Part shown: positions 3,177-46,240 of the stretch, in pieces
How the letters are laid out: the number at the start of each line of letters is the position of its first letter
Numbering within the stretch: position 1 is the stretch's first letter
From: Escherichia phage vB_EcoM_TU01
Length of the DNA stretch: 64,000 nt
Reading direction: 5' to 3' (one strand)
Sequence record: MZ560701
Program-made: the position numbers and the translations under genes
The notes under the pieces: model-generated
Database searches by the model: none
Seen by the model: only the letters and a program-made list of their open reading frames with translations
Told to the model about the DNA's origin: nothing

Positions 3177-3199
3177 GGGGACTTCGGTCCCCTTTTTTT
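3177..3199 (+). terminator. intrinsic terminator after rIIB
   Basis: GGGGAC-TTCG-GTCCCC hairpin followed by T7. Confidence 0.8.
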
Positions 3200-3501: not shown

Positions 3502-3994
3502 GTTTTTGACTAGTGAAATGAAGGTGAAGATTGCTGACACTGCTCGGTATTCCCTGAGCCAAAATCCTGACCAAAACAAAGAAGANGTAGTTCGACGTTG
3601 TAAGGTTGCGGTCTTTGCAGAGTATGTAGTAGCAAATTGGNTAGACGGATATGTTAATAAAGGTATTGAAGACGTAGAAGACCCGTACACGTATGCATGG
3701 GACGTGTTAGCCCATCCCAAGTATTGTGGAATTCGNGTAGAAGTCAAGACACANCAGATAGATTCTAAATGGATTTCGGTTACCACAGGATACAGTGGTG
3801 ATTATCCGGGTGGTAATGGAATCAATATAGGNCCCTTCTTGAACCATCGAGTCGCAGATTGCATTATTATATTAGATGTCAAAGAAACCTCACCTGACGT
3901 CTTCTCTTATTCTATAAAGTTTGTGGGAGACCATGAAGACCTAAAGAAAATCGTCCGCAAGAGCAACTACAACGGGTGGTATCTTCAACTTTAA
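3437..3994 (+). CDS. putative nuclease at the denB (endonuclease IV) position
   Basis: ORF between rIIB and ndd; start at 3437 (AGAGG RBS) gives 185 aa, the T4 denB length; alternative start 3518; D..E.K-like motif; identity positional, sequence not recalled. Confidence 0.4.
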   Translation: MVKTNLGLLRLKNLPTFILSNEFLTSEMKVKIADTARYSLSQNPDQNKEXVVRRCKVAVFAEYVVANWXDGYVNKGIEDVEDPYTYAWDVLAHPKYCGIXVEVKTXQIDSKWISVTTGYSGDYPGGNGINIXPFLNHRVADCIIILDVKETSPDVFSYSIKFVGDHEDLKKIVRKSNYNGWYLQL

Positions 3995-4006
3995 TTTCAT
4001 AAAAGT

Positions 4007-4036
4007 GTTTACAACTAAGTAGGACTATGATATAGT
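4007..4036 (+). promoter_or_regulatory. T4-type early promoter
   Basis: GTTTAC, 18 bp, TGaTATAGT; -10 enclosed by inverted repeat AGGACTA/TAGTCCT. Confidence 0.65.
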
Positions 4037-4062
4037 AGTCCTATCTAAAAGAGGATAACATC

Positions 4063-4326
4063 ATGAAATTTAAATTTTTCTACGCAAAACATAAAGTAAC
4101 AGGCGAATTTGTTTCAATGTACAACACTGCAGATGACGAAGGGATGATTTATACCCATTTGGGTCTATCTCATTGGGACTCAGACGTGCCTTATATGTCA
4201 TCTGAAGCNGAAATAACTCGTCTGGTTAATGGACATATGAANGACCATTTTGGTGTTATTCTTTCTAAAGACCTTAAAGAGGTTATCAACAAAGGATATA
4301 TGGAACTCGCGGAAGTTGAGATATGA
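4063..4326 (+). CDS. hypothetical protein
   Basis: 87-aa ORF with GAGGA RBS, downstream of an early promoter. Confidence 0.6.
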   Translation: MKFKFFYAKHKVTGEFVSMYNTADDEGMIYTHLGLSHWDSDVPYMSSEXEITRLVNGHMXDHFGVILSKDLKEVINKGYMELAEVEI

Positions 4327-4518
4327 GCTCTAAAATGTGGATCGGAATATGGTTGCTTAGTATCCCAATGATTTGTATAATATTTTCAATTGTGTTGAGG
4401 TACTTATGAAAAATGCACTTNTTATTGTACTAAGAACAATTTGTGATACGGGTTTTTACATTGCATGTTCGTTCACTGGAACATGGTTGGCTTTAACATA
4501 TTTTAATGTAATTTAATT

Positions 4519-4548
4519 GTTTACANCAAGGTAGGATTATGGTATAGT
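4519..4548 (+). promoter_or_regulatory. T4-type early promoter
   Basis: GTTTAC, 18 bp, TGgTATAGT; flanking inverted repeat GTAGGA/TCCTAC. Confidence 0.65.
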
Positions 4549-4576
4549 AGTCCTACTGAAACACGAGGAACACAAA

Positions 4577-4777
4577 ATGGCTAAGCTTTTTAAAGATGTT
4601 GAAATTGGTGAAAAATTTGTTCTGAATAATGGTCAGCAGCTTATTCGTGTAGCTTCTATCGCCGGACAAACTCATAACTGTATCGCCCCAACGTGTTGGA
4701 CTCGATTCTTTATTGAAGATGACACTGAATGTTTAACTGTTGAAGAGCTTTTTGAACGTTCTGATATAGCCGAATAA
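4577..4777 (+). CDS. hypothetical protein
   Basis: 66-aa ORF with GAGGAA RBS, downstream of an early promoter. Confidence 0.6.
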   Translation: MAKLFKDVEIGEKFVLNNGQQLIRVASIAGQTHNCIAPTCWTRFFIEDDTECLTVEELFERSDIAE

Positions 4778-4779
4778 AA

Positions 4780-4809
4780 TTGTACAAACTCTTGAGAGCA
4801 GAGTATAAT
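4780..4809 (+). promoter_or_regulatory. early promoter upstream of ndd
   Basis: TTGTAC, 18 bp, TATAAT; -10 enclosed by GAGAGCA/TGCTCTC. Confidence 0.6.
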
Positions 4810-4853
4810 GCTCTCATGGATTACAAAAACATTAATCAATTGAGGAAATTAGC

Positions 4854-6969: not shown

Positions 6970-7045
6970 GTGCCCTGGCCTTAGGATTTCTCGGTGCAAT
7001 AGCTGCACTAGTGATTTGGCTGTATTGGTTGGACAAACATGATTA

Positions 7046-7066
7046 GGGAGCCGAAGCTCCCTTTGT
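7046..7066 (+). terminator. intrinsic terminator after gene 52
   Basis: GGGAGC-CGAA-GCTCCC hairpin then T-rich tract. Confidence 0.7.
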
Positions 7067-7087
7067 GCATTTTTTNCTCACAAAACA

Positions 7088-7116
7088 GTTTACATGTGCT
7101 TCAAACATGATAGTAT
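7088..7116 (+). promoter_or_regulatory. early/middle promoter (copy A of motA promoter cassette)
   Basis: GTTTAC plus MotA-box-like TGCTTCA then TAGTAT; part of a ~70-bp direct repeat. Confidence 0.6.
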
Positions 7117-7160
7117 AGACCTATCAAAACAAAACAACCAAATTGGAGAAATAAAATGTC
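7088..7160 (+). repeat. direct repeat copy A (promoter, leader, RBS, ATGTCTAAA)
   Basis: about 70 bp, over 90% identical to 7410..7480. Confidence 0.85.
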
Positions 7161-7371
7161 TAAANTGAAATTAACCCAAAACACAACTACTCGTTTCGGT
7201 AAAGTTAAACCTGGTATGAATGCTCCACGTAAAGCACTTGTTGAAGAATTAAATTTCTTAGAAGTTGAAATCAATTCTTTAGTGGTTCGCGGTTCAAATG
7301 GACATCATTTAGAAAAGCTTCGTTCTAAAAAGGCAAAACTTATTAGCCTTATTAAAGAAATGAGTTTGTAA
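7156..7371 (+). CDS. hypothetical basic protein
   Basis: 71-aa ORF preceded by a near-exact copy of the motA promoter, leader, RBS and ATGTCTAAA start. Confidence 0.6.
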   Translation: MSKXKLTQNTTTRFGKVKPGMNAPRKALVEELNFLEVEINSLVVRGSNGHHLEKLRSKKAKLISLIKEMSL

Positions 7372-7409
7372 ATTTTACCAGGGCTTTTGGAAAAAGAGCC
7401 CAAAATAAA

Positions 7410-7439
7410 GTTTACTTTTGCTTCAAACATGATAGTATA
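7410..7439 (+). promoter_or_regulatory. early/middle promoter of motA (copy B)
   Basis: GTTTAC plus TTGCTTCA then TAGTAT, 36 nt upstream of motA ATG. Confidence 0.65.
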
Positions 7440-7480
7440 GACCTATCAAAACAAATACNAATTTGGAGAAATAAAATGTC
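7410..7480 (+). repeat. direct repeat copy B (motA promoter, leader, start)
   Basis: about 70 bp, over 90% identical to 7088..7160. Confidence 0.85.
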
Positions 7481-8108
7481 TAAAGTTACTTACATCATCA
7501 AAGCTTCCGAAAACGCTCTGAATGAAAAAACTGCTGCAATAATGGTTTATATCATTAAGAACAACTTCACCACTGCTGCCAATGTCCGTGAAGCTCTGGA
7601 AGCGGAATACAATGCATCGGTTGTTAACTCTAACATTGGTGTATTGATTAAGAAAGGTTTAGTCGAAAAATCTGGTGACGGACTTATAGCAACAGGTGAA
7701 GCAATGGATATTATCCAAAAAGCTGCAGACCTATTTGCTCAAGAAAATGCTCCAGAACTTCTTCAGAAACGTAACACCAGAAAAGCACGTGGAGTTACTC
7801 CTGAAATGCATGAACTAGCAAACTTTGTTTTTGAAAATATTAAAGATAAAGTTGAAGTTAAAGAAATTGGTGAAAACCGTAGTAACTTGGAAGTTCGATT
7901 TGCAAAACGAGTTCTAGGTATTCGTCAGATCGAAATTCGTCGAGATGGCGCTCTTAGAATCTTTGCATACAACATGACAGAAACTGAATCAAAGCTGTTT
8001 ACTTCTCTTGAAAATGATGTTAAGATTAAGATCGGTGGTAAATATACCTACATTGACTTCCCTAATGTTTCCAAAGAAATCATTACCCTTGTAACTAACG
8101 TACTGTGA
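7476..8108 (+). CDS. motA: middle-transcription activator MotA
   Basis: 210 aa; MSKVTYIIKAS..., NIGVLIKKGLVEKSGDGLI, QENAPELL match T4 MotA (211 aa). Confidence 0.95.
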   Translation: MSKVTYIIKASENALNEKTAAIMVYIIKNNFTTAANVREALEAEYNASVVNSNIGVLIKKGLVEKSGDGLIATGEAMDIIQKAADLFAQENAPELLQKRNTRKARGVTPEMHELANFVFENIKDKVEVKEIGENRSNLEVRFAKRVLGIRQIEIRRDGALRIFAYNMTETESKLFTSLENDVKIKIGGKYTYIDFPNVSKEIITLVTNVL

Positions 8109-16623: not shown

Positions 16624-19600
16624 TTATTCAATCCACTCGAATTTAACAGATTTATTCACAGGGTCTGGAATAATGCGGACATTACCAATCCTTAAGAAAT
16701 CCCTTATTGTCAAGTTTCCGATTGTTGCATTATCAGAAGGTAAAGCGCCAATATCAGAAGGTTGAGGAGGGTTTCCACCATCAAATACCTGAACAAAACT
16801 TGACCAAGAATTTTTAGTTTTCTGCCATGTACGTGTCCAACGAGTGGTACGTGCTTCTGGAGTTGTTGGATAAGTAATCCAATCTTGGTAAAGTGAATCA
16901 AGTGTATTACCAAACTGAGTCAATGTACCAGGAGATTTAACTTCTTCGCCACGTTCTAAGTATGGAAGTCCAGTCACTTCATTAGTTTTTTCAACCATTT
17001 TAAAATAACCAGGNAANTGGTTATAAGTGGCTGAATCATTAATGTCAATTGACCAGAATCCTACTGTATCGGATGTTGGTGCNCGAGTNTATAAATCAGA
17101 TGTTTTAGTGCCCTGAGAACGAATTCTCGAGTTAACAGTCAAACCACCTGAATTTATAGTAGCACCTTTGGCGATGATTAAGCTTTCACCAATCGTTACT
17201 TGACCAGATGCGTTATTAATAGCTAAAGGACGTAATCCATTAAATCCGCCAGTCTGATCACCTGATGCAGTAAGCATAAAATAGGTGTTAGCAGCATCAT
17301 TACGAATAAAGAATCCATAATCGCCATTTATTGCTCTGAAAGCATTTGCAGACTTGCTGATGAATTCACCATTAGCAGTAACTGAACGTCCGAATGTTGC
17401 ANNGCCATTAACATTCATCAAACCGGAAGCATTAATGTTTATTGGCATTACAGTACCATTAATGCTAAACGCTATATTCCCATCTTTATTACGTTGAGAA
17501 TAAAAGTGATTAGATGTTTCATCACCAACTTCAAATACAGTAGAACGTGTTGTATCNGAACCGCCANCANANTGNTTNCCCCANACNCNGATAGTCATCG
17601 TCTGTGCTGGGTTAGTTCCAGTTTGAGGTCCTTTCTCAAAAATCAGACGAGTTGCNGTTCCAGTATTAGAAATAGTTAATGTACTATTTGCCGAAACTGA
17701 ACCACCAAACGTAGCAGTACTAGATGATACAAGAGGGGCTCTCAGATTCGTTTGTTGGGTTAAGGTTAGTGAACCATTAACCGTCTGTGCAATGTCCCTA
17801 CGAATGAACTGAGACGAATCTAGGCCATCTAATAAATTTGTGTCAGCAGCTTTTGCTTTTAATGGCAANTAATTTGCNANTACACGGTTTAATTCATATG
17901 GTGATACNGCATAGCTATTTTTCTCNTATGATTCTAAAGGTTGTGTAGAACCGACTGTATCATTACCAACGAATGTAATTGAACCGGATGAAGTTTTAAC
18001 AAAACCTCNNATCGCCGTAGTAGCAGCCCATGTTGGTTCGTTCTGGACAATCCATTTTAAATTCTTAGGAGATACAGCAGTATTAGCAGAAGTTCCTGTT
18101 ACAGTTTCAGCCTGAGTAGCAACCTTAATTACACCTTCAGACGTTTCAGTGGACTTAGTCCCTAAAAGCTTTTTAGGAGTAATAAGAACATCATCTAAAG
18201 TTCCTGCATTAGATTCTGCCTGGGTCGCTACGCGAAGTGTACCACGTTGTGTTTCATTTGCTTTAGAAATATCAAGAGTATAATGGTTCCACAAGGTTCC
18301 TTCTTCAATAAGTCCGGAATCAGAATTAACACTGGTACGGTCAGAAGAATCAAAATGAGTTTTAATTTTCAGTGGAGTCGAGATACGAGTATCATCAGTT
18401 CCAGTATCAAATTCAACTTGCGTAGCAATTTCGGCTATGCCGGATAATCCTTCCGTCGCTCTCCTATCATTTAACGTCTTAGGCGTTACTGCACGTGTAT
18501 AATCAGTCCCAGCATTAGTTTCTGCTTGCGTAGCAATTTCAATTAAACCAATACGTCCATCAGTAGAAGTTTTCTTATGTAGTGTTTCAGGAGTTACTAC
18601 AGCGTGAGAATAACCTGCTTGTGATTGACCAGCAATTACTTCACTATCAACAGCTAAAATTACTGCACCTTGTTGAGCATAAGTTGCTTTATATTGGTCA
18701 AGGGCTTTAGGAGAAATAGTTAACNTGGNTGTGTCTTTATTATAAACGTTAGTGCCTGCGGCCCCACGAGTTTCAGCAGGAGTAGCAGAAGTAGTTGATA
18801 CATATTTAACTATACCAGACAGCGTTTCNGANCCCTGACGTGCCTGCAATTTCTTAGGTGTAATAATCGTTGTGTCATCAAGACCAGCATCGGTTTCAGT
18901 CTGAGTAGCAATTTCAGCAAGACCTCGACGAGTTTCAGTTGCTGTACGCTCATTTAGTTTTTTAGGCGTAACAATAGTATCGTCCACAAATGATGCTGTG
19001 GAATTCTGGTTAACTTGCGCTGTTGTAGCAATTTTGGCGATACCACGTCGAGATTCAGTTGCTGTACGATTTGCCAACGTTTCAGGAGTAATAGCCACTT
19101 CTTTAGCTGGAGTATTCTCTAAATCAACATTTGCTTGTGCCTGAGTTGCAAGAGCAATAACACCTACACGAGCTCNNGTNGNATCGGATCCAGCATCAAC
19201 ACGTTCTACCGTAGGGACATTCTGTTGCACAACCCAATAACGNGTNNCAGCAACGGTGTCTTCGATATACGCTAATTCTAATACAGGAACATATGAAGTA
19301 GTGCCATTGAATTCTAGTTCAGTAACAGAGACCCATTGAGCATCAGGTGGATATTCAGAACGTTTAGGGAACTGAAGCAATGCAACAGAAGAAGCAATTG
19401 TATCACCTTCGGCAGCTTTAATTTTTACTGTTTGGCCTTTACGCATGTAGTTCATTGAAATTTTAACAGTGTCACCACTCAAAATTCCGGAAGGCAGCGT
19501 AAGATTAATAGTTCCGGCTGTAGCGTTATTTGTGCCAAAAATAAGAACTTCTTCATTTGGACGAATATTTGAATCCGCACGGATAATACGAAGACGCGAT

Positions 19601-23791: not shown

Positions 23792-23813
23792 GGGAGACTT
23801 CGGTCTCCCTTTT
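23792..23813 (+). terminator. intrinsic terminator after gene 32
   Basis: GGGAGAC-TTCG-GTCTCCC then TTTT. Confidence 0.85.
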
Positions 23814-23840
23814 GAGTATCTGTAAATTGCCGAAAAAGTT

Positions 23841-23870
23841 GTTTACTTCTTCCCTGGATGTATTAGTATA
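23841..23870 (+). promoter_or_regulatory. T4-type early promoter
   Basis: GTTTAC, 18 bp, TAGTAT. Confidence 0.55.
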
Positions 23871-23898: not shown

Positions 23899-24303
23899 AT
23901 GGAAATCGGAAAATCTTATATCATTAACCCTTTATTTAAAGACGACTTTGTTCAAGAAGCACCACATAATAACGCTAAGATGTTAAAATTGATTGAACTC
24001 CATGGGCCTAGTTTTGTTGTAAACGGAATGGAACCTGATTATGATAGCGATACGCCAAACGTAGTAAGTGTAACTATGGAAGACGGTACTGTATGTTCTG
24101 CCGGTGGTGAAATTGAAACTTATTTTGAGATTTATCCTGACGAGTTCAAATACTTTATTGAGTACTTTACTGAGGTANNTTTAGTAAAGCCTCAACCTAC
24201 TAACGAAGGTATAACTTTAGGTGTAACAAAAATCCATTGTATCGTAGATGAAACCAACGTCGACGAAATCATCAAACTTTTGCAAAAAACTTTTAAAAAG
24301 TAG
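23899..24303 (+). CDS. hypothetical protein
   Basis: 134-aa ORF downstream of an early promoter. Confidence 0.7.
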   Translation: MEIGKSYIINPLFKDDFVQEAPHNNAKMLKLIELHGPSFVVNGMEPDYDSDTPNVVSVTMEDGTVCSAGGEIETYFEIYPDEFKYFIEYFTEVXLVKPQPTNEGITLGVTKIHCIVDETNVDEIIKLLQKTFKK

Positions 24304-24332
24304 TATACAATCAGATAGGGCTATGTTATAGT
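24303..24332 (+). promoter_or_regulatory. T4-type early promoter
   Basis: GTATAC, 18 bp, TGtTATAGT; perfect 10-bp inverted repeat GATAGGGCTA/TAGCCCTATC around the -10. Confidence 0.55.
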
Positions 24333-24367
24333 AGCCCTATCAAATCAAAAGTGAAGCGGAGAATAAA

Positions 24368-24616
24368 ATGAGATTGCAACGCCAGAGCATCAAAGATTCT
24401 GAAGTTAGAGGTAAATGGTACTTCAACATCGTTGGTAAAGACGCTGAACTCCTTGAACAAGCTGAAGAAGCTTTACGCGAAATGGGTTGGAACGAAGAAT
24501 GTGACGGATGTCCACTCTACGAAGATGGTGAAAGTGCAGGATTCTGGATTTATCATTCTGACGTCGATCAGTTTAAAGCTGATTGGAAAGTTGTTAAGAA
24601 AAATCTGAGGAAATAA
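24368..24616 (+). CDS. hypothetical protein
   Basis: 82-aa ORF downstream of an early promoter. Confidence 0.7.
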   Translation: MRLQRQSIKDSEVRGKWYFNIVGKDAELLEQAEEALREMGWNEECDGCPLYEDGESAGFWIYHSDVDQFKADWKVVKKNLRK

Positions 24617-24618
24617 TT

Positions 24619-24867
24619 ATGAATGTTGTTGTTGAATACTCTCAAGGCGCTGATGTAGGATATGAAGTTTACACTTCAGTTAATTTAGACCATCCGGATT
24701 TGGCCGAATTCATTGGTGACGCATTTGATTTGTCTGGGCGATACACAACAAAACCTCGTGTTTGTGTTACAACATTTGACCAAACCGATGGTTNTGAAAT
24801 TCAGACAGAANTAGTTTCATCTAAATCACAAATCCAAAAAGTTATTAAAGGACTTAAAAATGCTTAA
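24619..24867 (+). CDS. hypothetical protein
   Basis: 82-aa ORF immediately upstream of frd. Confidence 0.7.
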   Translation: MNVVVEYSQGADVGYEVYTSVNLDHPDLAEFIGDAFDLSGRYTTKPRVCVTTFDQTDGXEIQTEXVSSKSQIQKVIKGLKNA

Positions 24868-26584: not shown

Positions 26585-26647
26585 AAATTAACGGGATAAA
26601 TACTATCCCGTTTGGAGTAATGTCTATCAACCTATACTGAGGAATAT

Positions 26648-30163: not shown

Positions 30164-30571
30164 AAAGATATTGCCGCCGAATATTCCTTTATTAAATATA
30201 CAGAATTGGAGCTATTAGAAGATGCAACAATTAAAACAGTTGATGTCCCTAATAAGAAAAATGTCATATACGCTATTGCTATAGATGACGAACTTGTGTA
30301 TATTGGTAAAACCAAGAATTTAAAGAAACGCATTAACTATTATCGAACAGCCATAAATCGAAAAGACCAGACTTCAGATTCAAGAAAATCACTTATGATT
30401 TTGGATGCCTTAATGCAAGGCAAAAAGGTTGAATTCTGGGCCCGCCAATGTTTTGACCTTTCAGTCACCAACGAACTTGGTTCAATGACCATCGCAACAA
30501 TGGACCTTGAAGAACCGCTTTTTATCAAAAAGTTCAACCCGCCTTGGAATATCCAACATAAGAAAAAGTAG
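30161..30571 (+). CDS. denA: endonuclease II (GIY-YIG-like)
   Basis: 136 aa; VIYAIAIDDELVYIGKTKNLKKRINYYRT and C-terminus FNPPWNIQHKKK match T4 DenA. Confidence 0.93.
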   Translation: MKDIAAEYSFIKYTELELLEDATIKTVDVPNKKNVIYAIAIDDELVYIGKTKNLKKRINYYRTAINRKDQTSDSRKSLMILDALMQGKKVEFWARQCFDLSVTNELGSMTIATMDLEEPLFIKKFNPPWNIQHKKK

Positions 30572-30600
30572 TTTACACACCACAAGGATTGTGGTACAAT
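30571..30600 (+). promoter_or_regulatory. early promoter of rnlA
   Basis: GTTTAC, 18 bp, TGgTACAAT; spacer carries hairpin CCACAA-gga-TTGTGG. Confidence 0.65.
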
Positions 30601-31752: not shown

Positions 31753-31782
31753 GTTTACAAACACCAAGGAAGGTGTTACTAT
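31753..31782 (+). promoter_or_regulatory. early promoter of alc
   Basis: GTTTAC, 18 bp, TGtTACTAT; spacer hairpin AACACC...GGTGTT. Confidence 0.65.
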
Positions 31783-32944: not shown

Positions 32945-33159
32945 CTAAAGAACAGCATGAATACATTAAAGGGCTTATCTATGAATCTGAAATGGCGGCC
33001 ATGATTTACGGGCGTCAGATTCAACGATTAGAATCTTTGCCTCCGACTAATGACCGCTTGTTAGTTCAGTCTCGTGCTAATCTGAAAAACGAATATCAGA
33101 ATAAGTGGGCAGTAGCTACTAAAGCTCTTCATGAGTATATTGAATCTTTAGTAAAATAG
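32935..33159 (+). CDS. hypothetical protein
   Basis: 74-aa ORF. Confidence 0.65.
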   Translation: MPMTKEQHEYIKGLIYESEMAAMIYGRQIQRLESLPPTNDRLLVQSRANLKNEYQNKWAVATKALHEYIESLVK

Positions 33160-33189
33160 TTTACAAACTCTCGGGAGCAGAGTATAATG
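33159..33189 (+). promoter_or_regulatory. T4-type early promoter
   Basis: GTTTAC, 19 bp, TATAAT; -10 enclosed by GGGAGCA/TGCTCC; near-identical to the ndd promoter. Confidence 0.65.
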
Positions 33190-33216
33190 CTCCTATGGAT
33201 AATTGAGGAAATCTAA

Positions 33217-35284: not shown

Positions 35285-35314
35285 GTTTACAACACGGTAG
35301 AGTTGTGATACTAT
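35285..35314 (+). promoter_or_regulatory. T4-type early promoter
   Basis: GTTTAC, 18 bp, TGtgaTACTAT; inverted repeat GGTAGAGTT/AACTCTACC. Confidence 0.65.
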
Positions 35315-35342
35315 AACTCTACCAACAAATGAGGAAATAGAA

Positions 35343-35579: not shown

Positions 35580-35699
35580 TGAGAGCTATCTCATTACTAT
35601 AGAGAATGGTCATAAATCTGAGCACTACCAACTTAGCCTGTCTAATCCGGTTAAAGGTATTGTTGAATCAGAATCTGTTTATATCTCCTAAGGATTGTT

Positions 35700-36692
35700 A
35701 TGTTACCTGTCGTCGGAAAACTTATTTCTCCAAAAGAACTGGCTGAGATTATTCCTTTGTCGGAAGCTTACGCATCACAAGTGGCTTCTCATCGCGAACA
35801 AGTTAATTCGATTATGAACGGTGAAGACCCACGCAAACTTATTGTTGTAGGTCCTTGTTCAATTCATGACCCTATTGCTGCTGTTGAATACGGCAAACGT
35901 CTGGCTGAACTTCAAACTCGTCTTCCTAATGTTCTGTTAGTGATGCGCGTTTATTTTGAAAAGCCTCGAACTACCGTAGGTTGGAAAGGTCTTGTAAATG
36001 ATCCATATCTTGACGGAAGTTTTGATATGAACCACGGTCTTATAGTTGCACGAACATTGTGTCGTAAACTTCTACGTATGGGACTTCCATTAGCAACTGA
36101 AGTATTAGACCCATTCACGATTAAGTATCTTTCTGGTATTTTCTCATGGGTTGCTATTGGCGCCCGTACGACTGAAAGTCAGACACATCGTGAAATTGCT
36201 TCAGGTCTACCGATGTGCGTAGGCTTCAAGAACGCAACCAATGGTTCTATTAAAGTAGCTACAGACGCGATGTATAGTGCCGCCTGGCCTCATCGGTATA
36301 TGGGTATGGACGTCGATGGTACTGTAGGCATTGTTGAAGCTGAAGGTAATCAGAATACGCATATCGTATTGCGTGGCGGGACCAACGGCCCGAACTATCA
36401 TTCTTCTGATATTCAAGAAGCTTCTAACAAAGCAAGGGCAGTAGGTCTGAATCATTATGTAATGGTTGACTGTAGCCATGCAAACGCTGATGGGCATTAT
36501 AGCAATCAAATTGGTATTGGTAAAAATTTAGCAGCTAATGATTTGGTTAAAGGAATTATGATAGAATCATTCCTACATGAAGGAAATCAAAAAATTTCTG
36601 ATAATATGTCCTATGGCGTTTCCATTACCGATGCGTGCATCAGTTGGGAACAAACTAAAGAGCTGTTAACTTATATTAATAAGGTTCAATAA
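35700..36692 (+). CDS. 3-deoxy-7-phosphoheptulonate (DAHP) synthase, class I AroG/AroF-like
   Basis: 330 aa; GPCSIHDP, VMRVYFEKPRTTVGWKGLVNDP, GARTTESQTHREIASGL, KNATNGSIKVA, DCSHAN, ESFLHEGNQ, SITDACI align with E. coli AroG including the metal ligands; AAGGA RBS; stop overlaps cd start. Confidence 0.92.
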   Translation: MLPVVGKLISPKELAEIIPLSEAYASQVASHREQVNSIMNGEDPRKLIVVGPCSIHDPIAAVEYGKRLAELQTRLPNVLLVMRVYFEKPRTTVGWKGLVNDPYLDGSFDMNHGLIVARTLCRKLLRMGLPLATEVLDPFTIKYLSGIFSWVAIGARTTESQTHREIASGLPMCVGFKNATNGSIKVATDAMYSAAWPHRYMGMDVDGTVGIVEAEGNQNTHIVLRGGTNGPNYHSSDIQEASNKARAVGLNHYVMVDCSHANADGHYSNQIGIGKNLAANDLVKGIMIESFLHEGNQKISDNMSYGVSITDACISWEQTKELLTYINKVQ

Positions 36693-38776: not shown

Positions 38777-38781
38777 TTTTA

Positions 38782-38803
38782 GGGAGACTTCGGTCTCCCT
38801 TTT
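38782..38803 (+). terminator. intrinsic terminator
   Basis: GGGAGAC-TTCG-GTCTCCC then TTTT after the small basic ORF. Confidence 0.8.
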
Positions 38804-38836
38804 GTGCGTTTAGGGCAGAAAAAGTTTAAAAAAGAT

Positions 38837-38865
38837 GTTTACTCTCCTGTAGGATGTGTTACTAT
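38837..38865 (+). promoter_or_regulatory. T4-type early promoter
   Basis: GTTTAC, 17 bp, TGtTACTAT. Confidence 0.65.
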
Positions 38866-38906
38866 AGACTTGTACCACCTAATCAATAAAACAACCGGAG
38901 AACAAA

Positions 38907-39275
38907 ATGAAAATCAATCTGAACTCATACATCAAATGTAAAGACCACGATGGTTATAAAGCTATCGAAATTAAAGAATTCCAGTGGATGTTATACAAAG
39001 AGCAATTTGAGTTCGTAGGTTGTATGACCCCTGAAGGTCCTTCTGATGATTTCTCTTGGAAAATTGTGTTAGCAAACTTTTTCACAGGTGACACATACGA
39101 ATTAAAAACTATTATTACCGGTAAAATTCGTTCAGAAACATATGTTGACGAAGAAACTGGTTACTCTGAAGATGTTACATGGTATCAAAATGGACGCATT
39201 ACAGCAGATAACCTGATAGAAAAAATGAAAGCCAAAGGTGTTTTAAATTTAGACAATTGGATTAAAGTTGCATAA
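38907..39275 (+). CDS. hypothetical protein
   Basis: 122-aa ORF downstream of an early promoter. Confidence 0.65.
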   Translation: MKINLNSYIKCKDHDGYKAIEIKEFQWMLYKEQFEFVGCMTPEGPSDDFSWKIVLANFFTGDTYELKTIITGKIRSETYVDEETGYSEDVTWYQNGRITADNLIEKMKAKGVLNLDNWIKVA

Positions 39276-39279
39276 AACA

Positions 39280-39308
39280 GTTTACTTTGGTACAGGTTAT
39301 GTTATTAT
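39280..39308 (+). promoter_or_regulatory. T4-type early promoter
   Basis: GTTTAC, 17 bp, TGtTATTAT; inverted repeat GGTACAGGT/ACCTGTACC. Confidence 0.65.
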
Positions 39309-39349
39309 AGACCTGTACCAACAAACAACTTAAACATCTGGAGAATAAA

Positions 39350-39715
39350 ATGAACTACACCAACTTCGAACGTAAATATGTTTCTAACGGTATTGCTGGT
39401 TCTATTGATACGATTTGCTTATGGAAGCATAAAAACGGTNCAGTATGTGAAATTGAACAGTGCATGACTCCTAATTACGTTTATATGCGATTTGAAAATG
39501 GTATCACGGTTTCAATCACGATGGAAGGTTCAAATTTTAAAATTGCATTAGATGATGATTTCCGTCAGCGTGATTTAGGTACTCATCCTTGTTGGAATGG
39601 TGTTAATCGTAAACTTCTGGTTAAAACTTGGATTCGTCATATCCTGAGTAACCGAGCTAAACCTGAACATCTCGAAGCAATCTTTGATGTAGTTCTTAAC
39701 GAATTTGATATCTAA
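39350..39715 (+). CDS. hypothetical protein
   Basis: 121-aa ORF downstream of an early promoter. Confidence 0.65.
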   Translation: MNYTNFERKYVSNGIAGSIDTICLWKHKNGXVCEIEQCMTPNYVYMRFENGITVSITMEGSNFKIALDDDFRQRDLGTHPCWNGVNRKLLVKTWIRHILSNRAKPEHLEAIFDVVLNEFDI

Positions 39716-44094: not shown

Positions 44095-46182
44095 ATGTCC
44101 GAACAATTAAATGAAGTGTTTGAATCTGAAGGCAGTCTTCCTGTCGTCAATTTGAACCCTAAAGCTAAAGTTCCGCAAGTCTGGAAAATTGGNGATGTTG
44201 ATACAAACATCGTAGTTCGCTTATTCTCTTACCTTTCTGAAGGCGATGCTGTAAAACAAGTTAAACTTGGCGANAAATANGCTCATGTTGTTATTATGAG
44301 TCTGTCTGAAAAGGGTAATCTCGCTGAATTGAAAAATGGCCTTGGTCCTGCTCCTATTGATGCAATCAACACCATTTTCAATACAGTATATGAACAGGTT
44401 AAAGCTCTTCGTATGGATGCAGTTCTGTTCCGATTCCCTACCAAGAAATTGAAAGGACGTGGACAACANCTTCAAACTCTTCTTGCTCGTTTAGTTTCTA
44501 CTAAAACCGGTGGTCGTTTTAAAGTATTGTCGGCAATGTATCAATTCACAGGTAAACACACCTATGTGATGATGGTTCGTAAAAATGCCAACATTGAAGA
44601 TATTAAAGGCATCCCTAACATTAACACAGAGTTGTANACGAAAGTAGATTCTGATGTTGGCGAAGTTTATGTNAGTAAAAAGACTGGCGAAAAGGTCACC
44701 AAAGAAACGGCTATCGCTGGTTCTATTGCTGCTGTAGAAGAAAAACGTAAAGATAAGCCTGTTATTGCTCGNACTAAAATTTCTCGTCGTGCTATTGCAG
44801 CAAGTCAATCTTTAGAAGCTGACCGCCAAGAAGGTGAGTTATTCCAGAAATATGAAAATTCTGCTAAAGAAGTTAGTGGCCCAGCTACAGCCGAATTACT
44901 TCCTGAAGCATATGAAATTGTACTAGCTCAAGCATCGTCCACAGCAAAAGGCACTTTAGTTGCTGATATCGAAAATAAGATTTATAATCGTATTGATGAA
45001 TCCTTTAAATTTGCCGATGAAGTTTCTTATGGTAGTGTTATTAAGCCGACTTTAGAAAAGTTTGCTAAGAAAATTAAAACCGAAAAAACAACATCTGTTA
45101 AAGCATTAGCTGCTTTTGTTGAAGCTGCAAATGAAATTGCAGACTCTATTAAAGACGAATGGTTTGAAGATTTTAGACGTGATAATTTCCAACTGCCTGA
45201 CGACGTTTTAGCTGAAGTATCTGAAAGAACTTGGAAACAACGTAAATCAGCGTTCTTGTCTAATGTGATGTATACTTATGCNNGAGAATCGGCTAGAGGC
45301 ACCTTTAATATAACAATGAATCGGGACCCTAAACAATACTCTGTTGCTGAAAAACGAGCTATTCGTGAATATGCCTCTTCCGCGTATACCGATATCAATA
45401 ATATGTTGTTAGGTCGTTATAAACCAGATTTTTACGATGTTGCAGATGAAGATGAAGTTAAACGCGCTATTGATGGTCTTGATTCAGCGTTTTTAAATGG
45501 AGACCGTTTACCTGAAGGACTAACGTTATATAGAGCTCAGTCTATCAGAATGCCTATTTACGAAGCAATGGTTAAAAATAAGGTATTCTACTTCAGAAAC
45601 TATGTTTCCACTTCACTAGCTCCTATTATTTTCGGCGGGTTTAAAGAGAACGTTGCCCTTGGACTTGCTCCTGAAGAAGTTCGCAAAGAGCTTAACATTG
45701 ATAATAATGACGAAGGTGTTACTATTTCTCCTAGCCAAGTAAGAACAGCTATGCATGCACCAGAACAAATCCGTGTTAACGTTGGATGGGCCATTGATGG
45801 CGCCCATAAAGTTAACGTGATTTATCCAGGACAGTTGAGTAATCACCCTAATGAGCAAGAAATTATTTTGCCTAGAGGCATTCTCTTGCAGATAAATAAA
45901 ATTACAGATGCGTCATCTGACACTGGTGCAGGTTTAGAATCCAACCTTAAATTTATTCAAGCTGAAGTCATGTCCTCGGACCAGTTGGACGAAGCTGTCA
46001 TTTACGATGGTGATGTTCTCATGGAAACAGGCGAGGTGGTTGCTATGACGGGTGAAATCGAATCAGATGAGCCGGTATCGTTCTCCTCATTTGTAGAAAA
46101 AACTAGTGCACCTAAAGGTTTGAAATTGTTAGCATCTTTAATGGATTTAGAATCAGTTCCGTTTAAATTTGTCCAAGGATAG
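44095..46182 (+). CDS. alt: ADP-ribosyltransferase Alt (virion-packaged)
   Basis: 695 aa; C-terminal ART domain with YRAQS...STSL...E core; size and position match T4 Alt. Confidence 0.9.
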   Translation: MSEQLNEVFESEGSLPVVNLNPKAKVPQVWKIXDVDTNIVVRLFSYLSEGDAVKQVKLGXKXAHVVIMSLSEKGNLAELKNGLGPAPIDAINTIFNTVYEQVKALRMDAVLFRFPTKKLKGRGQXLQTLLARLVSTKTGGRFKVLSAMYQFTGKHTYVMMVRKNANIEDIKGIPNINTELXTKVDSDVGEVYXSKKTGEKVTKETAIAGSIAAVEEKRKDKPVIAXTKISRRAIAASQSLEADRQEGELFQKYENSAKEVSGPATAELLPEAYEIVLAQASSTAKGTLVADIENKIYNRIDESFKFADEVSYGSVIKPTLEKFAKKIKTEKTTSVKALAAFVEAANEIADSIKDEWFEDFRRDNFQLPDDVLAEVSERTWKQRKSAFLSNVMYTYXXESARGTFNITMNRDPKQYSVAEKRAIREYASSAYTDINNMLLGRYKPDFYDVADEDEVKRAIDGLDSAFLNGDRLPEGLTLYRAQSIRMPIYEAMVKNKVFYFRNYVSTSLAPIIFGGFKENVALGLAPEEVRKELNIDNNDEGVTISPSQVRTAMHAPEQIRVNVGWAIDGAHKVNVIYPGQLSNHPNEQEIILPRGILLQINKITDASSDTGAGLESNLKFIQAEVMSSDQLDEAVIYDGDVLMETGEVVAMTGEIESDEPVSFSSFVEKTSAPKGLKLLASLMDLESVPFKFVQG

Positions 46183-46211
46183 TTTACAAACACATGGATG
46201 TGTGATACTAT
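46182..46211 (+). promoter_or_regulatory. T4-type early promoter
   Basis: GTTTAC, 18 bp, TGtgaTACTAT; GGATG/CATCC dyad. Confidence 0.6.
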
Positions 46212-46240
46212 CATCCCATCAACAACATGAGGAAAACGTT

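Follow-up and report, generated by a model that had tools for sequence, protein, structure and literature searches.

A 64,000-nucleotide stretch of Escherichia phage vB_EcoM_TU01 (record MZ560701; hereafter the window) carries early genes on its + strand (rIIA, denB, ndd, 52, motA, asiA, and rnh through alt) and late tail-fibre and baseplate genes on its − strand. A 6-kb piece of it was 98.1% identical to, and colinear from coordinate 1 with, Escherichia phage vB_EcoM_JS09 (Mosigvirus, RB69-like), and over 50 kb the two records differed by 1106 substitutions and 670 N, with 0 indels. Because no insertion or deletion separates them, the JS09 annotation could be transferred directly. The whole window has 688 scattered N, some of them within promoters (for example 4526, 23872 and 23874). 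Upstream of the RB69ORF270c homologue, at 4007-4043 on the + strand, lies an early promoter built into an inverted repeat. Its −35 element is GTTTAC (4007-4012) and its −10 box TATAGT (4031-4036), and the arms, TAGGACTA (4020-4027) and TAGTCCTA (4036-4043), fold as RNA at −13.2 kcal/mol (z score −3.3). The right arm is followed by AGAGGA and by the ATG at 4063, and the element is identical in RB69 and O157 typing phage 6. An initial annotation had recognized this site, ending it at 4040, which cuts through the right arm, and had proposed that it is one of a series of promoter early stem-loop (PeSL) cassettes. Here we describe this element and its counterparts at other early promoters, and weigh what the stem may do.

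A permissive scan for intergenic GTTTAC-N17-19-TAnnnT on the early strand returned 17 promoters, and an 18th was recognized upstream of ndd (TGTACA...TATAAT with TGAGAGCA/TGCTCTCA, 4793-4816). All 18 sites have sigma-70-type early-promoter architecture, with a spacer of about 17-19 nt and, at most of them, TGn and A-rich upstream sequence; a Shine-Dalgarno (SD) sequence and ATG lie 18-36 nt past the predicted start site in 17 of the 17 promoters tested. The seven inverted repeats quoted in the initial annotation were all located, at most 1 nt from the positions given, and each falls inside a GTTTAC-N17-19-TAnnnT promoter followed by SD and ATG. The best perfect stems in the 17 promoters (−24 to +20) measured 8, 6, 6, 6, 4, 4, 3, 10, 7, 6, 6, 9, 3, 11, 4, 5 and 5 bp. 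Stems of at least 6 bp were present at 10 of the 17, as against a mean of 2.29 in dinucleotide shuffles, and stems of at least 8 bp at 4 of the 17, as against 0.17; 0 of 2000 shuffles reached either count. Among genomic 44-nt windows, 10.4% contained a stem of at least 6 bp and 1.1% one of at least 8 bp. Dyad symmetry is therefore commoner at these promoters than in shuffled sequence, the comparison on which the proposal had been made to depend. Chance symmetry in AT-rich intergenic DNA could account for the stems at 46196, 31753 and 30571, which individually are at or near chance level, but for the class as a whole it is already refuted by the shuffles, by the register peak and by the covariation described below, and we consider its probability negligible.

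RNA folding gave z scores of −3 or lower in 7 of the 18 cores (4007, 4519, 4782, 24303, 33159, 35285 and 39280), at −12 to −19 kcal/mol. These seven strong stems, with z from −3.1 to −6.3, enclose the −10 box and, like every element given below, lie on the + strand. The ndd.1 early promoter (4519-4556; −10 TATAGT 4543-4548) has arms GTAGGATTA (4531-4539) and TAGTCCTAC (4548-4556) with one U.G pair, and a z of −4.8 on the JS09 copy. Arms TGAGAGCA (4793-4800) and TGCTCTCA (4809-4816) surround the −10 TATAAT (4804-4809) of the ndd promoter (site 4782; 4781-4816; −35 TGTACA) and fold at −13.9 kcal/mol (z −3.6). The frd.1 promoter (24303-24341; −35 GTATAC, −10 TATAGT 24327-24332) folds at −18.7 kcal/mol (z −6.3), with arms GATAGGGCTA (24314-24323) and TAGCCCTATC (24332-24341). 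At the RB69ORF231c-homologue promoter (33159-33193; −10 TATAAT 33183-33188; z −3.1) the arms are GGAGCA (33174-33179) and TGCTCC (33188-33193); at the cd.2 promoter (35285-35323; −10 TACTAT 35309-35314; −16.3 kcal/mol, z −5.8) they are GGTAGAGTT (35296-35304) and AACTCTACC (35315-35323), and at the 30.7 promoter (39280-39321; −10 TATTAT 39303-39308; −17.9 kcal/mol, z −5.2) TTGGTACAGGT (39287-39297) and ACCTGTACCAA (39311-39321). Three of these (4519, 4782 and 33159) are additions to the seven examples first listed, of which 4007, 24303, 35285 and 39280 proved strong and the others did not. The rnlA promoter (30571-30600) has a marginal spacer stem, ACCACAA (30579-30585)/TTGTGGT (30589-30595), z −2.0, whose right arm spans TGn and the start of the −10 TACAAT. 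That of the alc promoter (31753-31782), AACACC (31760-31765)/GGTGTT (31772-31777), is also marginal and alone not significant (z −1.3), and the alt.-3 promoter (46182-46216), with GGATG (46196-46200)/CATCC (46212-46216), is at chance level (z +0.2). A significant embedded stem is missing from 9 of the 18 promoters. An Rfam scan of the whole window at gathering threshold gave 0 matches.

The stems fall into distinct layouts. In class A, the spacer contains the left arm, some 13 to 4 nt 5′ of the −10 box, and the right arm runs from the last −10 base onward for about 8-13 nt; because the arms flank it, the −10 box sits in the loop. In class B, both arms lie between the −35 element and the start of the −10 box (30571, 31753). 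A third layout, found in relatives, places the −10 hexamer itself within the right arm, as in AGGCTATgGTA-gtga-TACtATAGCCT at the frd.1 promoter of Dhaka- and Gapriverviruses. Register was examined in 131 unique promoter regions drawn from 20 sources, among them the window, T4, RB69 and 16 further loci in seven genera. Relatives were taken from GenBank phage records, a PseT scan of IMG/VR having given 7 loci; T4 is under-sampled in this set, per-genome counts are lower bounds, as an open reading frame (ORF)-filtered promoter finder overlooked true promoters (T4 cd.2, window 4782), and orthologues in the cross-phage counts are not independent of one another. As an unselected test we used a gapless axis scan instead of a MAFFT alignment of 118 unique cores, since gaps would break the register. 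Relative to the first −10 base, the dyad axis x+y=1 carried at least six consecutive pairs in 26 of 131 regions and at least eight in 10. Other axes mostly scored 0-1 regions, with secondary peaks at −5 (11), +2 (9) and −16 (6). The class A right arm is a variant of the block conserved 3′ of the −10 box (AGnCCTATCAAC), and the left arm tracks whichever variant is present. Counted from the predicted start, left arms span about −25 to −16, and the last base of the right arm falls between about +1 and +7. The A of ATCAAC, where transcription is predicted to begin, coincides with the right arm's final base or precedes it by a few; RNA from the promoter itself would therefore be unable to form the stem. 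The predicted 5′ ends of most early transcripts also share an A/C-rich, G-poor leader (ATCAACAACA...) ahead of the SD, about 12-20 nt past the −10 start and conserved across genera.

Orthologous promoters retain the stem while its sequence changes. At frd.1, 12 of 14 phages have a stem, built from at least 7 distinct arm sequences. At cd.2, T4-like phages have GGTAGAG/CTCTACC, RB69 has GGTgGAGTT, i.e. a G.U pair, and Dhakavirus-like loci have TGGTAGGACT/AGTCCTACCA and CGGTAGGACT/AGTCCTACCG. In orthologues of 33159 the left arm is lengthened to AGGAGCA or TGGGAGCA, with matching right arms. The 30.7 stem TTGGTACAGGT/ACCTGTACCAA is shared with T4, RB69, Dhaka- and Gaprivervirus; Klebsiella phage Marfa has TTGGTGTAgGAGTA/TACTCtTACACCAA in its place. 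The T4 record NC_000866 annotates 133300-133313 as 'inverted complement of previously reported sequence; corrects the early promoter'. These 14 nt are exactly the loop TTGTGATATTATAG between GGTAGAG and CTCTACC of the cd.2 promoter, orthologous to window 35305-35314; because the record note covers exactly the loop, the older T4 sequence or clone evidently had it flipped between the repeats.

Covariation was scored in a gapless alignment of 22 class A elements, paralogues and orthologues together. Paired cells amounted to 83%, falling to 28-49% when the partner was slid by 1-3 columns, both sides varied in 9 of 12 pairs, and the covariation score of 0.547 (0.270 in shuffles) was reached by 0 of 500. 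Covariation of the arms spans seven genera. The proposal that symmetry is kept while sequence changes is thus borne out by paralogues, orthologues and covariation statistics, and because symmetry persists as sequence varies, a nucleic-acid stem is indicated rather than a single protein operator. Perfect inverted repeats could also arise and be repaired with no selection for pairing, as a neutral by-product of template switching at quasi-palindromes and of gene conversion among repeated promoter cassettes. Quasi-palindrome-templated mutation has its textbook case in T4, promoter cassettes recur and pass from one locus to another, and the older T4 sequence has the cd.2 loop inverted between its arms. 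Template switching, however, gives perfect palindromes and no strand bias, so that the sense-strand G.U bias reported below contradicts it as sole cause. It also leaves unexplained the fixed register, the avoidance of terminator-preceded promoters and the retention of a stem with unrelated arms at one locus across seven genera. We therefore regard a purely neutral origin as quite improbable.

Whether such a stem acts as DNA or RNA can be approached through its mismatches. A cruciform requires both strands, and therefore G.T in one hairpin is A.C in the other. With equal penalties for G.T and A.C, arms 10 nt or longer that have a single internal mismatch contained 11 distinct G.U on the sense strand, 0 A.C and 4 transversions. 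Short, chance-level stems contained 7 G.U and 6 A.C, and this near-equality argues that the method itself is unbiased. Among strong cores, defined by a fold of −9 kcal/mol or better for one strand or the other, 45 of 49 were more stable as the sense strand (means of −14.7 and −11.3 kcal/mol for the sense and the opposite strand), as were 40 of 40 at −12 kcal/mol or better; weak cores had no strand bias (32 versus 40). When related sequences were clustered, the sense strand was favoured in 14 of 17 clusters (p = 0.013), the exceptions being 3 class B spacer stems. Equal pairing potential on both strands, as expected of a cruciform, was thus not found in strong cores. These observations point to a stem selected as single-stranded + strand, most simply as sense RNA arriving from upstream promoters. 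Where 'hairpin or cruciform' had been suggested, the nucleic-acid stem holds up, and sense RNA is favoured over the cruciform because the + strand folds better and long-arm mismatches are G.U, never A.C. The several stem registers also favour RNA, because contacts with RNA polymerase differ between them.

A role in DNA would take the form of a cruciform or non-template-strand hairpin in supercoiled DNA, its loop presenting the −10 box and tuning open-complex formation or promoter strength. It would account for a dyad axis fixed on the first −10 base, at the upstream edge of the transcription bubble, and for the −10 box lying in the loop at the strongest sites; in RB49 and phi1, PeSL stems stopped DNA sequencing reactions (Arbiol 2010; PMC2839356). 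It fits poorly with the strand and mismatch biases, with at least 4 stem registers, including spacer-only and −10-in-stem forms that RNA polymerase contacts should not tolerate equally, and with the rarity of stems behind terminators, which should be irrelevant at the DNA level. Moreover, 8-13 nt loops with 6-11 bp arms form cruciforms poorly. On balance we consider a DNA-level element unlikely.

The embedded stems resemble rho-independent terminators in being stem-loops in the intercistronic gaps of co-directional genes and in being mutually exclusive with neighbouring canonical terminators. If they were efficient intrinsic terminators, each would halt most upstream transcription and insulate each small gene, as proposed for PeSLs; one RB49 stem-loop cloned alone lowered lacZ expression about as much as rrnB T1 (PMC2839356), and the complementary distribution of the two kinds of hairpin would follow. 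Nevertheless, no T-run follows an embedded stem on the + strand of the window, the tails being A/C-rich (ATCAACAAC), and a consensus terminator scan of that strand flagged 0 embedded stems. The same scan flagged the window terminators at 3177, 7045, 23792 and 30139 (38781 was recognized by eye), each of which combines a G+C-rich stem, a 4-nt UUCG or CGAA loop and a T-run. Identity with canonical terminators was rejected on the lack of T-runs; the embedded stems also have larger loops and fewer G-C pairs. T4-type delayed-early expression, in addition, needs read-through from upstream early promoters. Efficient termination at each stem is accordingly a doubtful explanation. A perfect 9-bp stem AACGGGATA/TATCCCGTT at 26590-26612, just 5′ of nrdA, stands directly after a TATAAT and before GGAG, and gave a terminator-like call on the − strand only.

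Three window promoters have a canonical terminator just upstream and no embedded stem: 7088, preceded by terminator AGGGAGCcgaaGCTCCCT and its T-run at 7045-7075 (7045-7116 overall; core fold −4.6, z −1.2); 23841, preceded by the gene 32 terminator GGGAGACttcgGTCTCCC and T-run at 23792-23815 (23792-23869; z +0.7); and 38837, preceded by AGGGAGACttcgGTCTCCCT and T-run at 38781-38806 (38781-38865; z +0.3). Promoter 7410, likewise without an embedded stem, adjoins a GC hairpin with no T-run (GGGCTTTT...AAGAGCCC), and stemless promoter 20541 opens a transcription unit beside the divergent late gene 34. Beyond the 7 strong and 2 marginal cores, 4 window promoters thus have a hairpin just upstream in place of an embedded one. 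This distribution was tested across 150 unique promoters, scoring an embedded hairpin at −9 kcal/mol or better and a terminator up to 90 nt upstream. Hairpins were embedded in 3 of 29 promoters with an upstream terminator and in 56 of 121 without one (Fisher p = 2.5e-4, the real support being weaker than p because orthologues are related). The complementarity holds across genera, and it suggests that the upstream cistron needs a hairpin at its end, which either a terminator or a stem embedded in the next promoter, and still permitting read-through, can supply. A literature search for maps of T4 3′ ends or transcript boundaries found nothing usable.

In T4, genes e, soc, 49 and I-TevI have late promoters inside hairpins whose 3′ arm masks the SD or AUG (PMC3014915). 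The window elements are alike in having a 5′ arm that lies 5′ of the internal promoter's predicted start and a structure predicted in longer transcripts only, but they belong to early promoters and leave the SD unmasked. Masking of the e/soc/49 type was rejected for the window: the right arms end near +1, 8-25 nt short of the SD, and among the 17 promoters computed the unpaired probability of SD/AUG was not consistently lower in read-through than in own-promoter RNA. Early-promoter versions of that arrangement do appear to exist at T4 alc and alt.-3 and at Karamvirus 30.7. At T4 alc and alt.-3 (record about 136336 and 123093) and in three of the related loci (L005 at 8271 and 20711, L017 at 20855 and L015 at 19197), a spacer sequence CCCTCGTGTTGTGT or CTCCGTTGTAT pairs with the SD sequence ACATAACATGAGG or ATACAACGGAG, with energies of about −22 to −29 kcal/mol. 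RNA reading through these promoters from upstream would have a masked ribosome-binding site, and the promoters' own RNA would not. General translational gating, in which the spacer arm helps to mask the ribosome-binding site of read-through RNA and translation occurs only from the gene's own transcript, can draw on this pairing in T4 and L005 (alc, alt.-3) and in Karam- and Gelderlandvirus (30.7), and on a principle established for late promoters. Given where the window arms end and the SD accessibilities, it is a very improbable account of the class described here.

PeSLs were defined in RB49 and phi1 as strong early promoters that have AT-rich DNA upstream, terminate on the 3′ side in SD and ATG, and contain a stem-loop in which G-T pairs may occur, placed mostly between −35 and −10 or across the −10 itself; they are repeated in hyperplastic regions, have a role in cassette shuffling and sometimes flank indels (Arbiol 2010; PMC2839356). 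The same study noted T-even 'analogues' at T4 early promoters, with weaker, AT-richer stems. PeSLs as described there and in Comeau 2014 are conserved over ~100 bp and recur mainly among small non-essential early genes. The window elements have the structural features of PeSLs, as the initial annotation had supposed: AT-rich sequence ahead of an early promoter, a stem-loop, SD and ATG, in a repeated element. They are like the RB49/phi1 elements in having a stem between −35 and −10 or over −10 and in recurring at many small-early-gene junctions. They differ in their −35 sequence (GTTTAC rather than TTGACA) and in having mixed, AT-richer stems such as TAGGACTA, GATAGGGCTA and TTGGTACAGGT, rather than Gn...Cn stems; 8-13 nt separate the perfect arms, and there is no sequence homology to the RB49/phi1 elements. 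Terminator activity, and mini-circles from recombination between neighbouring elements, were demonstrated in RB49/phi1 only. Because only RB49-specific features (TTGACA, Gn/Cn stems) fail, we group the window elements with the T-even analogues. Those of PST/T4 and of the IP loci (the latter from Repoila 1994, as cited in later work) likewise combine TTTACW-N17-TAYWAT with weaker, AT-richer, variable stems. In PST/T4 the stems lie just 5′ of the promoter with an AGNA-loop-TCNT pattern (Comeau 2014; PMC4122927), whereas the strong window stems enclose the −10 box. Comeau 2014 gives the denB-ndd region as an example of cassette exchange, and the focal site falls in that region. Nolan 2006 lists 57 RB69 early promoters with stems not mentioned, and our literature search found no publication that treats PeSLs together with RB69.

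Each element had also been taken to mark a gene-cassette boundary. We compared indels between the window and RB69, AV109 and LF82-1, excluding homing-endonuclease and intron insertions. Five of 9 had a boundary in a promoter or 5′ untranslated region (UTR); promoters occupy about 28% of gene junctions, the chance of an indel touching one is roughly 48% per event, and an excess is not demonstrable with 9 events. Two promoter-to-promoter events were clear. The cassette at 7088-7486 (+) consists of direct repeats (7088-7164 and 7410-7486) around an ORF at 7156-7371; the repeats are about 92% identical over ~78 nt, encompassing promoter, 5′ UTR and the first three codons (MSK), and RB69 has one repeat copy and no such ORF. 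AV109 lacks gene 30.8 and has promoter 38837 and its leader joined straight to 30.7 (AV109 19100-19210 versus window 38837-39350), as expected of recombination between two promoter/leader cassettes. Counter-examples are two insertions, 24616-24856 and 35594-36689, whose nearest promoter lies about 300 nt away. At 35700-36692, between cd.2 and cd, lies a gene for phospho-2-dehydro-3-deoxyheptonate aldolase (DAHP synthase), which is found in JS09, AV109, LF82-1 and Klebsiella phage Marfa and not in RB69 or T4, and which resembles an auxiliary metabolic gene insertion whose boundaries lack a promoter. As both clear events (7088/7410 and 38837/39280) involve weak-stem or stemless promoters, the recombination substrate is likely to be promoter and 5′ UTR homology, not the hairpin. 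The boundary claim is thus borne out in these two events and overstated as a rule for each element.

Cassettes are also found at other loci. JS09 4479-4593 (ndd.1) is ~90% identical over ~75 nt to two Dhakavirus-like loci, L010 (11560-11675) and L013 (15813-15927). Promoter, hairpin and leader are shared; the Dhakavirus-like gene (start MSKFFEERKFYK) and the flanking coding sequence are unrelated. In the Tequatroviruses CT01, ZN18, GEP001, fPS-65, AV119 and OES_C-1, the junction of denB and the ORF270c homologue, orthologous to window 3994-4063, has a class B stem, TACCACA...TGTGGTA, in place of TAGGACTA/TAGTCCTA between the same flanking genes. This stem, which has a U.G pair in OES_C-1 and lacks the innermost pair in ZN18-type copies, is of the same type as that of the window rnlA promoter (30571). 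The occurrence of the ndd.1 cassette at an unrelated locus and the swapped stem class at the focal junction show that whole cassettes move or convert between loci. Repeated promoter sites cluster in denB-ndd, frd, pseT-cd and 30.x.

We think it probable that these are PeSL-type cassettes of T-even kind, each a strong sigma-70 early promoter, whose spacer-built stem is an RNA hairpin in read-through transcripts, a reading that draws on sequence comparison. The loosely constrained spacer (about −25 to −16) would have evolved complementarity to the constrained stretch after the −10 box (about −7 to +3) or, less often, to TGn/−10 itself. The promoter's own transcript, starting at the right arm's 3′ edge, would be hairpin-free, and the stem would form only in sense RNA entering the untranslated inter-cistron gap from an upstream early promoter. 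There it would most probably serve as intercistronic punctuation, attenuating transcription in part and/or obstructing 3′ exonucleases and RNase E scanning, and it would replace the canonical terminator hairpin while RNA polymerase still reaches delayed-early genes. Intercistronic stabilizer hairpins such as the repetitive extragenic palindromic (REP) elements illustrate how a hairpin lacking a U-tract could stand in the way of 3′ exonucleases or of RNase E scanning; the window stems have compatible sequence features and no sequence relation to them, and a like function is only presumed. From the sequences we infer that the hairpin forms in vivo and influences the fate of the RNA, presumably through attenuation, a barrier to decay or insulation. 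Separately, the ~75-100 nt of conserved promoter and 5′ UTR would act as a homology patch, through which recombination occasionally adds, deletes or swaps small cassettes.

Several points weigh against this hairpin reading. The start site on which the absence of the stem from own-promoter RNA depends is deduced from the customary −10 to +1 spacing together with the conserved ATCAAC. The covariation rows were preselected for at least 5 pairs on the axis, which inflates the paired percentage and not the two-sided changes, and the p values for strand bias and terminator distribution are optimistic, orthologues not being independent. The tight register at the upstream edge of the transcription bubble would also be compatible with a DNA-level role. 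The lack of T-runs and of terminator calls at embedded stems counts here too, and the published terminator activity, coming from one G/C-rich RB49 stem, may not be transferable. Finally, promoters 9921, 40365, 46182 and 61516 have neither a stem nor an upstream terminator, which shows that a hairpin is not obligatory.

The identification extends PeSL-type cassettes to RB69-like phages, which include a replication model in wide use and common therapy isolates. Beyond the original PeSL descriptions, it adds sequence evidence for selection on the sense strand (RNA) and the alternation with canonical terminators, and it turns a descriptive motif into a testable hypothesis on how long, overlapping early transcripts are punctuated in T4-type phages. 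For annotation and engineering, it implies that altering a promoter spacer may alter the fate of upstream RNA. A wider and decidedly more tentative possibility is that Tevenvirinae early-promoter spacers systematically encode the 5′ arm of an RNA structure present in upstream-started transcripts only. If so, the mRNA of each early gene would exist in two forms, with and without the hairpin, having different fates: stability or attenuation would differ where the 3′ arm lies at the discriminator/+1, as in the window, and translation where it is the SD, as at T4 alc and alt.-3 and Karamvirus 30.7. The logic of the late promoters of e, soc, 49 and I-TevI would then extend to a genome-wide 'promoter-of-origin tag' for early genes, and would help to account for the distinction between immediate-early and delayed-early expression.

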